A DNA stretch of 64,000 nt, taken from the NCBI GenBank assembly GCA_947586825.1, contig CANPXU010000002.1, positions 5,317 through 69,316 on the forward strand. The letters are read 5' to 3'. The position numbers are program-made. Source of the DNA: an uncultured Bacilli bacterium (GTDB lineage: Bacteria > Bacillota_I > Bacilli_A > RF39 > UBA660). Numbering within the stretch: the stretch's first letter is position 1; each line of letters starts with the position of its first letter. Positions 15,001-21,000 of the stretch are shown here, piece by piece.

Positions 15001-18000
15001 GTATAATGAAAAAGGTATATAAACTAAAACAAATGTTATTGTAACGATTATTATAAATACAATTTTTTTTGCGGTTTTTTTATTACTTATATGAGCTAGT
15101 TTTAATAAGTCCTTACTCATATATTACACCATCTTTAATATGATATAACACATCACAATACTCTTTTATTTGCTTATCATGAGTTACTACTATAACACAC
15201 TTTTCTTTTGATATCTCTTTTAATAATTTAAATATTTCTATCTCGGTTTTAGAATCTAAATTTCCTGTTGGTTCATCCGCAATAACATAGTCAGGATTGT
15301 TAATTAAAGCTCTTATAATAGCTACTCTTTGCATTTCGCCCCCAGAAAGTTCAGATGGATAATGATTCATTCTATTTGCTAAATGAAATCTTTCAAATAA
15401 ATCTTTAGCGTATTCCTTTTTTTCTTTAATTTCCTTTTTATTAATAATACATGGAAGTATAGCATTTTCAAAAGCGGTTAATTTATTATCTAAAAAATAA
15501 GATTGAAATACAAAACCAATTTTTTTATTTCTTATTTTTGCTTTTTCTTTTTCTTTTAACTTTGATACATTTTTGCCTTCAAAAATATATATTCCGGTCG
15601 TTGGTGAATCTAATAACCCCAAAATACTTATAAGTGTACTTTTTCCTGCTCCTGATTTGCCCATTATAGCATATAATTTTCCTTTATCAAATTCCTTATT
15701 AACATTTTTTAATACTTCAATCTCATTAGGTTTTCCAATATTATATTTTTTTGATAGATTTATTAATTTCATTTATTTTCACCTCTTTACCAAAAATTAT
15801 AATAGCTAAGAATGATTTTAAATTCTTAGCTATTATATAATTTTATTAGCTGTTTGCGCTATCGCTATTATAAACTTTAACTGTTCCTTTCATATAAACG
15901 CTATATGATGCTAATTGATATTTATATACTCCTGGAACCAGTTTATAGTAACTTTCACTATCAGTAACATTCTCAACTGGATCATAGAAGCGATAGGTCA
16001 ATTGAGCTTCATATATTCCTAGGGCACTTCTTTTTCTAGCGACTACATCAAGATAAGAGCCCTCTGTATCTGTTCTAACATAAGTCGGAGTATTAGTAAT
16101 TTTTTGATAATTTAAGTCCATAGTTCTAGCTTCAGAAATAACACTACTTGCTGCATTTAACGAGTATGTAATATCCAATATAGTAACGGTTAAAGCCTTG
16201 GCAGATGCAATCATTAATAATGAACAAGCTAAAATTCCTATACAGCCTAAAATTTTTCTTTTCATATTGCTCCTTTCTAATTTTTATTTATAACGAACTC
16301 TTTAATGTTTCCGGATTTCATATATCATTAAAATAGTTGTTATCACAATTAATTGTATAGAAAATTAAATCTTATTATTTTTAAAAAGAGTGTAATTAAA
16401 ACAAATTCATTTTTTCTTTAAAATTATAGTATTTTCAATTTAAATCGATGACTTAACAATTTAGATAGTAATATCAACACCATTCATACCATCATATTTA
16501 CTTTTTATACTATCATCGAATTTGATGACACCTCCATACCCTAAATATGAAATTGTATACTTTTTACTTTGGTTTAATGTCGTAATAGATGAAGCATGTT
16601 GATAACTACCATATACTTTACCAGTTCCTGAAGCCAAAAAAGTTAATGAAATTTCAAGCCCTGTTCCAGTCCCTAAAAGGAAAGAGCTGCCAAATCCATT
16701 AGAAAATTGCTGTTTCTCACTAGAATAAGAAGTTATTAAACTTCCATTTGATATATAAGTTTGTTTAAATGTAAAGGAGCCACTTAATGAAACTCCATCC
16801 AATCTGACAGCTATTACATCATAACTTTTAATCGTAGGCACGCCTTTCCAAGTAGCCATCAGAGTAATATAATTACCGTTCTTAATTAATTTTACAGTTT
16901 TAGCACTTGAAGAGAAAGATGTCCCACATGGTAATATTTCTGGATATTCTTCAACAATAATTTCATTTATGTTAGATGAAGTTATCATTTTATATTCATC
17001 ATATGTTATTGTTTGAATATAACTTTTTGAATATATATTAATTAGCTTATTATATTGTTCTCTTTCAAATACTACGCCGTTTTGATTAACGTACCTTTCT
17101 CCATTAATAACTTTGGCATTTGCAATAGTCGGCAAAGCAATAAATAATATAAATAAAATAAATAAAAATTTTTTCATTGTCTCTCCTCGCTTTCAAAAAA
17201 AGTATATCACTACATTTTGCGTTTATAACTCTACATTTAGTAGAATATTAAAAAAACATTCTATTTTGAGTAGAATGTTTTCTATAAGCTTTTAAATTTC
17301 TTTTAAATAAGATATATACATAGCAAAATCTTCTATACTACTGCAACTTTCTAGGTCACAATTTTTCTTTTCTTTAATGTTTAATTCTTTATTTTGAACT
17401 AATTCGCCATTTACAAGTTTTTCATAAGATATATTATCTAATCCAACTCGACTAGAAATCTTTTCTATAACATCATCTTTTACAATTGAGATTATAAAAT
17501 TATTCAACTCAACATCATAGATACAGGTTGTTTTTTCTGCTATTTGCTTTTCTAAATAGCTTTCATAATCTATAAAGTCAATGTCAAGAAGCTTGTCCTT
17601 TAAGCTTTCATTCAAAGATGTAGTTCTCTCCTCCAAAATATTGTCTATCTTTCTTGGGAAAATATTATCATTCGTATATTTTTCTTCAAATATAAGATTA
17701 ACGATTTCCTCTTCATTATCTTCATATATTATTTCTAAATATACTTTATTATTTAATAAATTTTGTAAGTAATATTCTGAATAGCCATTATTTTCTTCAA
17801 TATAATAATCTTTATTAGCTCCGGCAAAAATATCAATTGTTTTATTATCTTCGTTAATATAATACATCCGAATTTTTTCTACAGATCGCTTGGTTGAAAT
17901 TTTGTTAAAGTTTAATATACTGATTTTATTAGTAATTAGTAAAGTTGAATTTAACATGCTAATGTTATTATTTTCATAGGCTATTGTATAAACTTTAATA

Positions 18001-21000
18001 GAATTTCTTATATAGATAATATAAATCGAAATTAAAAAACCTATAATTATTAACAAAATCGAAACTACTAAAAAATTTACTTTTTTTCTATATCTATTAT
18101 AGTTATTCTTATATACGTTAATAAAATTTTTCCGTATTTTTTCTTTATTATAACTACCTAATTTTTCTCCATAAATTAATTCTTCTACACTAATATTAAA
18201 AATGTCAGCGATTTCATTCAAAACATTTGGATTACTTGGAAATGAAATACCTCTTTCCCATTTAGAAATATTTTTATCGCTATAATGAATTAAATCTCCA
18301 AGTTCTTTTTGTGTTAAATGTCTATTTTTTCTTAATTCAGACAAAAATTTTCCCCTTTTTTCATCATCTATCACTACGCACCACCTTGCTTATTTCCATA
18401 TTTATTATAAGTAAATATTCAAAAATTAGCAAATAATAAATAAAATCGCTATTATAGACTATAAATATTATATTATTAATCTATATTACATATATAATTT
18501 GGGATAACCTTGACTTTCGATTTGCTCCCATACATAATCGATATCTAATTGATAGGAATTTTTATAATACTTTGAAGTTGAGTCATAAATTCTATCCAAA
18601 TAGGTAAAATTATAAATCAATGTTACTTCTTCAGTATCAAATGGTTTAATTAACTCTGGCCCCGAAGTTTGAATCTCTTTATCTGCTAAAATATAATTAC
18701 TAAGAATAAAGTCCGTGAAATTATTTAAATCTTCTGCTACGGCTTTAATAATTATTTCCCTATTTTCTTGCAAAAAATTTGTGTTTTTAGTTTTCAACAA
18801 ATTATAAACATTTATTAGTTTACTATTTTTTTGTATTTTTTGAGCTATATTATCTTCCATATCTTTATAACCTAATGTGGCTAAATAATCTTTATAGCAA
18901 TCATTAAAGCCCTTTTTAGTTATAACCTTTTTCTTTATAATATATTTATAAACGCCATTATCTTCGGTATAGTAATACTTTCCTTGACGAACTAGCATAT
19001 TCTCTCTTAATCCATGAGTGATATTATTGAAGTATGTCATAACTTTAGAAAAATTAGTAAATGCTTCATATAAAAGATTACTATCTTCTATTTCGCTAGA
19101 TAATAAGGATAATGAAGGAATAAAATCATATTTTGCAAAATCATATATTAAATCATTTTTACCTGTTTTTTCCCCGGGAAGTGATGATTCAACCTGTCTA
19201 ATATCTGACATTAGAAAATCTAGGGATTTTTCATAACTTAAAGATAAAGCAAGGCTAGAACGTATAAAATCATCATAACTTGCAACCATTTTGTCTTCTT
19301 GTTTAATATATCTATATCCTAAAAAAAGTAATAATGCCAAACTTATTATTAATAATATGATTATAATAACCATATTTTTATTTTTTTTCATATAATGTTA
19401 ACTCCCCTTTATTTATTTCATATACATAGTCACATAAAGTTTTAATATCTTCTTCATAATGACTAGTAATAATAATTGTAGTCCCTTTTTCCTTTAAATC
19501 CAAAAGAACCTTTCTAAAATAAAGGACACTTTCTTTATCTAAACCATTAAATGGTTCATCAAGCACTAATACCTTTGGTTTTTCCATTAAAGCTTGAGCG
19601 ATTTTTAATTTTTGTTTCATTCCCGTAGAATAATTTTTATATTTAGTCTTATTAAATGGATCTAATTTTACAAATTTCATAATATCGTATATGTCTTTAT
19701 CCTTAATCTTATTTTTTAAAAGTGAAATAAGTTTTAAATTTTTAAATCCCGATTCATATTCGATAAATCCCGTATCAATAAGCACACCGAAATCATCATA
19801 AATGGTTAATTTATCATCAATAACTACTTCTCCACTAGTGGGCTTATAAAGTCCAACTATAATTTTAAGCAAAACCGTTTTACCACTACCATTGTAACCA
19901 ATAATTCCAGTAATTTTTTCTTTATTAAATGAAATATTTATATTATTTAAAACCTCATTATTATTAAACTTTTTTGATAAGTTTTTGGTATATATAATAG
20001 CTTTATTCATGATAAATCCCTCCTTAAAAATATTTTTTTGATACTAAAATATAGTAGAAAATACGCCGTTACAAAAAAGGTGATTAATAGCGAGCTTTCA
20101 GTGAAAACTGAACTTTCTGGCAAAAATGTACTTTTTATTACTAGTTCTAATACGATGTTTGCAAGAAATATAGAAAATAAAGAAATAGAAATTTTATCAG
20201 TATAAACATAAATTAATAAATATAAATTAGGTATTATGAGCGATAACAAAAATTTATATAAAATAGGATATAAATTATTTATACTAAAAGTAAAATCGAC
20301 TTTATTAAAATAGCACAAGACTAAATAAAAGATAAAATAAAGTGCACATATAATAACAGATATAATGGCGTTTACAATAAACAATTTACGAATAAATTTT
20401 TTCTTATTTACTCTAAGAATTGAAGTTGTCGCAGTATCCCCAAAAAAGAAATTACATAATCTTGAAATACTGAACACCAGCAAAGATAAATATACTATTT
20501 CAAGTGATATTGCCAATACAAAGTCTAATTCAGAGAAACTCATTGGAAGCATATAAATATAGTAAATATAATTTAAATCGCTTATTTTACTTTGAATCAT
20601 ATTATTTGTTTCTACATATAGAAGTGGATCGACAGTAAAATATAAAAATAAAAATGCCCCAAATATTAGTATTAATAATCCTTTATTTAACAAAAACTTT
20701 TTAAAAAATTTCTTCATATATTTCTCTCTATTTTTCTTTTTAATATTATTTTAGCAAGCCCAAAAGTCACTAATAGATAGATTAATCCTATTAACAAAGG
20801 TTCATATAAATTCAGTAAATTTGCATCATTAATATAATAGGAAACAAAGTTAAAAATTGAATGAAGATATAAAAACGGAGCTTTTATAGAAAAAATAGAT
20901 GAAATAGCAAAGAATAATATTATAAAAGTATATGACATTGCTTTATTTCTAAATAGTGAGCTAACAATAATACTAATAAAGCCTAGTGAAATACCAAAGA

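Follow-up and report, generated by a model that had tools for sequence, protein, structure and literature searches.

The 64,000-nucleotide stretch of DNA analysed here, referred to as the window (positions 5,317 to 69,316 of the forward strand of contig CANPXU010000002.1, GenBank assembly GCA_947586825.1, from an uncultured Bacilli bacterium), encodes three paralogous regulators, Reg1, Reg2 and Reg3, which are probably bitopic one-component transmembrane transcription regulators controlling the genes directly downstream of them. They fall within the operational definition of transmembrane transcription regulators (TTRs), i.e. proteins carrying a DNA-binding domain and a predicted transmembrane (TM) region in one polypeptide (PMC10269533). 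TTRs are an established type of regulator; what is new is a large family within this type that has an unclassified ectodomain and a conserved secreted partner, a 238-residue protein that we call Sec238.

The region from 12 to 30 kb of the window is entirely minus-strand, and the three regulator open reading frames (ORFs) lie inside it. Reg1 (17292-18374) encodes 360 amino acids from a GTG start, Reg2 (21697-22809) 370 amino acids from an ATG start at 22809, and Reg3 (28790-29899) 369 amino acids from a TTG start. The start of Reg2 is placed at 22809 and not at 22845, where a longer ORF would begin, because the former has a GAGAGG ribosome-binding site and agrees with homologues, while the ORF from 22845 begins inside a promoter-like site that it overlaps. 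Pairwise identity among the three proteins is 27-33%. Each has an N-terminal helix-turn-helix (HTH) domain recognised by Pfam as HTH_3 (PF01381), with scores of 36.4, 55.6 and 46.7 bits against a cut-off of 23 (E values of 5e-9 to 6e-15), located at residues 12-66 of Reg1 (nt 18177-18341), 11-64 of Reg2 and 13-65 of Reg3. The TM helix follows at residues 101-122 (nt 18009-18074), 99-117 and 96-117, respectively. Directly after it comes the heptad SI(K/Q)(I/V)(Y/F)TI, in the form SIKVYTI in Reg1 (residues 125-131, nt 17982-18002), SIQIFTI in Reg2 (residues 122-128, nt 22426-22446) and SIKIYTI in Reg3 (residues 122-128, nt 29516-29536). The proteins contain only three cysteines each, two of which form a CxxxxC pair 16-19 residues from the C-terminus: CDLESC in Reg1 (residues 339-344, nt 17343-17360), CTIEDC in Reg2 (residues 346-351, nt 21757-21774) and CTIQKC in Reg3 (residues 346-351, nt 28847-28864). 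Both landmarks occupy aligned positions in the three proteins.

The preliminary description of this DNA had proposed an architecture of an XRE-type HTH, a single TM helix and an ectodomain, and this is borne out by the HTH_3 matches above cut-off, by the hydrophobicity profiles and by the charges that flank the TM segment. There is one hydrophobic segment of 19-22 residues per regulator (Kyte-Doolittle maximum 2.6-3.1) and none elsewhere, and it is bordered by 4-6 lysines or arginines on its N-terminal side and 0-3 on its C-terminal side. As the DNA-binding domain must be cytoplasmic and the flanks follow the positive-inside rule, the C-terminal ~245 residues (residues 123-360, in two subdomains, in Reg1) are predicted to lie outside the cell, and an N-in/C-out topology fits the sequences of all three regulators. 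A cytoplasmic C-terminal domain, which the same description had named as a result that would speak against its proposal, is thus not what the flank charges indicate. The C-terminal regions have no match in Pfam, NCBIfam, PHROG or PADLOC, where only the HTH is recognised, and a profile of the ectodomain matches exactly Reg1, Reg2 and Reg3 within the window.

In the AlphaFold2 model of Reg3, built from a 42-sequence alignment (mean pLDDT 89), a five-helix HTH (residues 4-67) is followed by one continuous helix (residues 76-119) that comprises both the linker and the TM segment, and the ectodomain is divided into two subdomains with a disordered connector at residues 243-253. The membrane-proximal subdomain 1 (residues 124-233, nt 29201-29530) is beta-sandwich-like, with SIKIYTI as its first strand. 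The outer subdomain 2 (residues 261-368, nt 28796-29119) consists of a helix, an antiparallel meander of 7-8 strands and a C-terminal helix, where Cys346 belongs to the last strand and Cys351 to the short loop that leads into the last helix. The elements come in the same order in a separate model of the Reg1 ectodomain, with pLDDT above 90 in subdomain 1 and weaker values (58-87) in subdomain 2. In Foldseek searches with the full model, the HTH superposes on P22 c2, C.BclI, ImmR and SinR with a root mean square deviation (rmsd) of 1-2 Å and 30-38% identity, and also on C.AhdI and DdrO; for P22 c2, C.AhdI and ImmR the TM-score relative to the target is 0.8-0.9, at an rmsd of 1-2 Å. The ectodomain has no match in the PDB by sequence profile, and the ectodomain-only model has no Foldseek match there at E≤1e-3, with weak Ig-V-like matches to subdomain 1; against BFVD it gives low-TM matches only. 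The best non-HTH Foldseek match of the full model is to the LolA/RseB-like half-barrels (Ehrlichia LolA, 9azz, E 1.2e-4, probability 0.94). The outer domain of the regulators resembles these in being laid out as helix, antiparallel meander and helix, but the TM-score is only 0.19-0.24 and the rmsd exceeds 20 Å, and the match is taken as a lead from modelling, not as a classification.

A profile of the TM helix and ectodomain, scored against 1.84 billion cluster representatives (50% identity), identifies a family of 902 clusters at E≤1e-3; 660 of them pass E≤1e-10 and 297 pass E≤1e-30. The members are almost all 350-375 amino acids long and the profile match starts near residue 95, so that the architecture is fixed across this large family. 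A search with Reg3 finds full-length relatives at 30-75% identity, every one of them from metagenomes or metagenome-assembled genomes (MAGs) and none of them named; in genome collections the carriers are MAGs labelled "uncultured Bacilli bacterium", a good number of them from rabbit gut. The sole annotation encountered, in an insensitive homology search with the ectodomain profile that returned 9 matches, is [quoted passage not shown].

Conservation was assessed in alignments of 42 homologues (27-76% identity) and of 166 non-identical full-length members. The juxtamembrane motif and the C-terminal Cys pair, which the preliminary description had noted in the three paralogues, are kept well beyond them and are no product of chance. 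Both cysteines are at least 90% conserved in the smaller alignment, and in the larger one both are present in 134 members, neither in 26 and one alone in 6. The heptad proves to be the core of a longer block, F.xYYF(I)N.Y(N/K)SI.VYTI.G, which extends from the TM helix, at its outer end, into the first beta strand; its residues F111, Y114, Y115, F116, Y120 and Y126 (Reg3 numbering) are each found in 84-95% of the 166 members. Across these members, information content per column is highest in the HTH (2.62 bits), closely followed by the juxtamembrane strand (2.49), then the TM helix (2.16), subdomain 1 (1.96), the linker (1.59), subdomain 2 (1.33) and the interdomain stretch (1.02). Outside the HTH, 18 positions have one residue in at least 80% of members, among them the Cys pair and the juxtamembrane Tyr. 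N234, at the end of subdomain 1, is 98% conserved, and in subdomain 2 only Y278, Y325, C346 and C351 reach the 80% level. The two subdomains also differ in divergence among the paralogues of the window, which share 26-39% identity in subdomain 1 and 15-23% in subdomain 2. The earlier statement that the ectodomains are otherwise diverged therefore holds for the outer subdomain only. Diversification of ligands is plausible.

Synteny provides the link between the regulators and the genes downstream. Sec238 (16461-17177, minus strand) is the gene that follows Reg1; it has a Sec signal peptide and no recognised domain. In a sample of 14 loci with different family members, from different MAGs and samples, a Sec238 homologue (29-46% identity) is the gene directly downstream on the same strand, at a distance of 64-107 nt, in 11 loci (L005, L006, L007, L009, L011, L012, L015, L017, L022, L023 and L024), and is absent from that position in three (L008, L010 and L013). 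The reverse lookup, starting from three Sec238 homologues on long contigs, finds a 354-394-residue HTH_3 family gene directly upstream in all three cases. The pair is found between ftsEX-pcsB and uvrB (L015, L019), between trigger factor and lon (L020), and within conjugative-element genes (L021, L023); since its surroundings vary so widely between loci, the regulator and Sec238 move as a unit. In L005, L007, L009 and L011, Sec238 is followed by ABC ATPase genes, accompanied in three of these loci by FtsX-like genes. Relative to uvrB (10145-12097), Reg1 and Sec238 of the window have the side and the gene order seen in L015 and L019. On this basis Reg1-Sec238 looks like the ancestral copy; Reg2 and Reg3 are partner-less paralogues.

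Sec238 itself represents a family of 826 database clusters (90% identity), all "hypothetical" and without Pfam domains, with a cleavable AxA signal peptide, an N-terminal helical region of ~55 residues, and a beta-rich C-terminal part that contains the invariant motifs SYQHA and YDxMxGV. A common origin of Sec238 and the regulator ectodomain was considered and rejected, the profile-profile comparison giving a probability of 0.4%. Most relatives of Sec238 carry a Cys pair of their own, C-x3-5-C, in a predicted strand (e.g. SCSSNCIM, ACLPSYCIM), which the Sec238 of the window and its nearest relatives have lost (IKNGNYIT). The Sec238 homologue of L007 (8846-9578) is apparently split, with a signal-peptide start at ~8846 that is out of frame with the main ORF (9012-9578), and is either an assembly error or a pseudogene. 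Loci L013 and L014 share a common backbone around the family member, and L014 has an extra insert of ~4 kb (~9900-14100) with Zot-like and Rep_OBD genes that resembles a small filamentous-phage or plasmid-like element.

Candidate transcription signals are located between the two genes of the pair. A terminator-like hairpin with a T-run directly follows the Reg1 stop codon (17252-17282, minus strand), as does a long one in the case of Reg3 (28741-28788, minus strand), and at least 8 of the 14 homologous loci have a comparable hairpin 3' of the regulator. With these hairpins in between, the regulators and their downstream genes look like separate or attenuated transcription units. The spacer upstream of Sec238 (17178-17251, minus strand) is predicted to be the likely target of regulation. 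Within it, AAATGTAG occurs at 17210-17217 and again at 17231-17238, 21 nt apart, alongside TCTAC-N5-GTAGA, and the repeat may be regarded as a weak candidate for an operator. Palindromes were tested in the last 60 nt before Sec238 homologues at 15 loci, with 300 shuffles; inverted repeats are longer than in most shuffles at 5 loci. Three of the palindromes, long and perfect, are striking: 13-0-13 in L015, 14-2-14 in L019 and 11-2-11 in L024, matched or exceeded by 0, 0 and ~1 of 300 shuffles. The AT-rich palindromes (L015 8171-8241, L019 5929-6000, L024 7075-7137 and, as 9-14-9, L017 8087-8150) lie between the terminator-like hairpin of the regulator and the ribosome-binding site of Sec238. 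They are candidate operators of a dimeric HTH, and that their sequences differ from locus to locus is as expected if each regulator has its own operator; alternatively, they may form AT-rich RNA hairpins.

Taken as membrane-tethered regulators of their neighbours, Reg1-3 would work as follows. The cytoplasmic XRE/Cro-C1 HTH would bind adjacent promoter DNA while remaining tethered through the long linker and TM helix. The fast-evolving outer alpha/beta subdomain would be the likely receptor for a cue, and the membrane-proximal beta-sandwich, together with the aromatic block of the TM-helix end and first strand, a likely transmission or oligomerisation element, in which the aromatic block would couple the ectodomain rigidly to the TM helix. 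CxxxxC would probably form a short-range disulfide and so fasten the outer domain's last strand to the C-terminal helix, as a structural lock that is possibly redox-sensitive. The ancestral target would be secreted Sec238, often together with a MacB/FtsX-type ABC exporter, and that of Reg2 and Reg3 an ABC transporter cassette alone.

Several observations weigh against this reading. A profile scan finds Sec238 as a single gene in the window, present only after Reg1, and as Reg2 and Reg3 lack the partner, the module is not uniform. In the window's own Reg1-Sec238 spacer the shuffle test finds no significant palindrome, and AAATGTAG is not enriched over the whole window (6 found, 5 expected). About 16% of the family lack both cysteines, so that a disulfide cannot be essential for signalling; the pair would then modulate function or stability rather than define it. 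Finally, all family members come from uncultured organisms.

A rather unlikely alternative gives the partner a different part, as in the co-component sensors of the ToxR/ToxS or VtrA/VtrC type: Sec238 would be more than, or something other than, a regulated target and would bind the ectodomain as a co-sensor, stabiliser or diffusible protein signal, and so set the activity of the regulator. The strictness of the gene pair speaks for such a role, adjacent and on the same strand at 64-107 nt in very different contexts including mobile elements, as does the downstream partner typical of those transmembrane regulators that have been characterised (Table 1 of PMC10269533; PMC13042144). However, the AxA signal peptide of Sec238 is cleavable and the protein lacks a membrane anchor, whereas ToxS and VtrC are membrane-anchored; the terminator-like hairpin usually present between the genes argues against stoichiometric co-expression; and Reg2 and Reg3 have no such partner, while ectodomain and Sec238 are unrelated in sequence. 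It is unlikely, in a more specific form, that Sec238 is a diffusible ~24-kDa ligand or co-sensor of the regulator, with CxxxxC as a redox gate, in a hitherto unrecognised two-gene signalling module of wall-bearing low-G+C gut Bacilli. If true, the two genes would make up a circuit for protein-based autoinduction or kin sensing, which might control a bacteriocin-like effector together with its MacB-type immunity or export pump. A co-sensing role of Sec238 does not conflict with direct control of the downstream genes by Reg1-3, and the same is true of the metal-binding or intermolecular role of the cysteines discussed below.

The resemblance to ToxR/ToxS, TcpP/TcpH and VtrA/VtrC of Vibrio and CadC of E. 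coli is an analogy of layout only. Like Reg1-3, these proteins are bitopic, with a cytoplasmic N-terminal DNA-binding domain and an outside sensor, and in ToxR-type systems there is likewise an outside Cys pair and a partner gene directly downstream. The disulfide of ToxR constrains its periplasmic fold and guards against proteolysis (PMC7265457, PMC6242745), and that of CadC takes part in pH sensing (PMC3096576). In contrast to Reg1-3, the DNA-binding domain of these proteins is an OmpR-type winged helix. Reg1-3 have no Pfam match to Trans_reg_C, their DNA-binding domain being HTH_3, and as this domain is XRE rather than winged helix, they are not members of the ToxR family by ancestry. The sensor folds are unrelated by sequence and the hosts of the ToxR-type proteins are Gram-negative; their partner is membrane-anchored and co-transcribed, whereas Sec238 is a signal-peptide protein encoded behind a terminator-like hairpin. 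The resemblance is one of convergent logic and not of shared ancestry.

Closer in its DNA-binding domain is BcrR, the bacitracin sensor of Enterococcus faecalis, which has an XRE-type HTH and is a permanently membrane-bound one-component system that controls an adjacent ABC transporter operon. It shares with Reg1-3 the HTH class and the link to ABC transporters, but has four TM helices and no ectodomain and senses within the membrane, where Reg1-3 have one TM helix and a folded region of ~245 residues; it also has no Sec238-like partner and no Cys pair. BcrR is listed among TTRs in the survey of Demey et al. 2023 (PMC10269533), in which the commonest classes are helix-turn-helix and single-pass forms and the TTR share is somewhat elevated in Bacilli, among other lineages. 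XRE, HTH_3 and cysteine are absent from the main text of that survey, and the ectodomain family, its motifs and its partner are not described there. The literature library that was searched yielded no publication describing the family, that is, a single-pass XRE regulator carrying such an ectodomain.

It is improbable that the proteins are membrane-sequestered repressors freed by regulated proteolysis, with the juxtamembrane block as the cleavage or recognition site and the HTH, set free by site-1/site-2 cleavage, active in the cytoplasm, as in the anti-sigma factors RsgI or RsiV. What invites the comparison is that the strongest conservation outside the HTH is found exactly at the junction of membrane and ectodomain. 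Juxtamembrane regulated or autoproteolytic cleavage is established for the Firmicute RsgI (PMC10328401), and the redox state of the Cys pair governs proteolysis of ToxR (PMC6242745). However, the block is modelled with high pLDDT as an ordinary helix end and beta strand, and no protease gene is conserved beside family members at the loci examined. Autocleavage of RsgI is marked by an Asn-Pro site, and the family consensus of the block contains no Pro. The match to Sigma_reg_N is far below threshold (15 bits against 26.3). The juxtamembrane strand is conserved nearly as strongly as the HTH, and to judge from the alignment it is more in keeping with coupling or packing than with ligand binding.

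For the Cys pair, the preliminary description had suggested a disulfide or a metal- or ligand-binding element. The retention or loss of both residues together suggests that they work as a unit, which favours a disulfide, although the members that have neither show that the family can do without the pair. In our judgement there is a low probability of a metal-binding or intermolecular site, in which, for example, two protomers would supply four thiolates and a ligand or metal would thereby drive dimerisation of the HTH. Evolutionary coupling of the cysteines would suit any functional unit of two residues, the host is a gut anaerobe whose outside is reducing, and XRE regulators act as dimers. 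Yet the outer domain has no further conserved His, Cys, Asp or Glu to complete such a site, only Tyr278 and Tyr325 also reaching 80%. The frequent form of the pair in homologues, C-x-x-G-x-C, fits a tight turn and resembles one closed by a disulfide, and complete loss in 16% of members is typical of a dispensable structural staple. Short-range Cys pairs also recur in exported proteins of the lineage, since most members of the Sec238 family carry one; a Big_14 lipoprotein has one as well, and together these suggest exported disulfides in the lineage.

It is very improbable that the proteins are RodZ-like morphogenetic scaffolds rather than transcription factors, since despite the same order of parts (HTH, TM helix, outside beta domain) they have no match to HTH_25 or to the RodZ C-terminal domain (DUF4115), occur in three copies within 17 kb of the window, where RodZ is single-copy, and in multiple copies per MAG (L005 and L006 are from one bin) as well as on conjugative elements, and have as linked neighbours a secreted protein and exporters rather than cell-shape genes.

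Further identities were rejected. For the anti-sigma factors (RsgI, RsiV, Sigma_reg_N), the only match is the one of 15 bits to Sigma_reg_N, which lies over the Reg2 TM helix. Phage RstR was rejected with NCBIfam scores of 41-55 bits against a cut-off of 80, in matches confined almost wholly to the HTH (in Reg3 extending into the linker, to residue 106). PADLOC matches to the RosmerTA antitoxin RmrA score at most 35 bits, are centred on the HTH and leave the C-terminal part of the ~380-residue models uncovered; a few reach the linker and TM region, and one in Reg1 extends to residue 181. For a spr1629-type repressor, no full-length match above the curated cut-off that included the C-terminal part was obtained.

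To our knowledge, membrane-tethered one-component regulators are understood almost wholly from a few Gram-negative examples (ToxR, TcpP, CadC). With hundreds of members in uncultured gut Bacilli, the family offers a tractable Gram-positive counterpart, in which the Cys pair, the juxtamembrane block and the palindromes are handles on how a signal passes through a single helix. Two large families of "hypothetical proteins", the regulators (~900 clusters at 50% identity) and Sec238 (~800 at 90%), can be tentatively assigned to one functional module from sequence and gene order. The family overturns no existing concept; it suggests an outside-to-gene signalling module that is new but not revolutionary.

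In the window, each regulator is followed by export genes on the same strand, and an ABC ATPase is present in all three cassettes. After Sec238, the Reg1 cassette continues (12687-16265, minus strand) with genes for a secreted 139-residue protein (15846-16265), an ABC ATPase (15113-15772), an FtsX permease (13936-15120), a second membrane protein (13208-13939) and a Big_14 lipoprotein (12687-13136). Between the secreted 139-residue protein gene and the ABC ATPase gene, a hairpin with a 16-bp stem and T-runs on both strands (15798-15837) has the appearance of a bidirectional terminator. The Reg2 cassette (18486-21637, minus strand) encodes two polytopic membrane proteins (20714-21637 and 20007-20717), an ABC ATPase (19378-20010) and a membrane-anchored 301-residue protein (18486-19391). 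The Reg3 cassette (22904-28588, minus strand) contains two fused ABC proteins, one with ATPase and FtsX domains (26129-28588) and one in which only the ATPase domain passes the Pfam threshold (23865-26132), followed by two Big_14 lipoproteins (23348-23809 and 22904-23344). Two of the ABC cassettes thus end in Big_14 (bacterial Ig-like) lipoproteins, three in all, two of them 69% identical, which may be accessory or immunity components. G+C content is 0.225-0.27 over the three cassettes (~12000-30000) and 0.28-0.33 in the flanks, values consistent with an accessory island that has expanded beside uvrB.

Directly upstream of Reg3 is a gene for a surface protein of 2497 amino acids (30086-37579) with a C-terminal Peptidase_M26 domain and a HETAH zinc motif. 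Elsewhere in the window, positions 5527-6651 encode a secreted protein of 374 amino acids with long Gly-rich runs, and positions 43977-44639 and 44658-45362 encode tandem paralogous membrane-anchored proteins.

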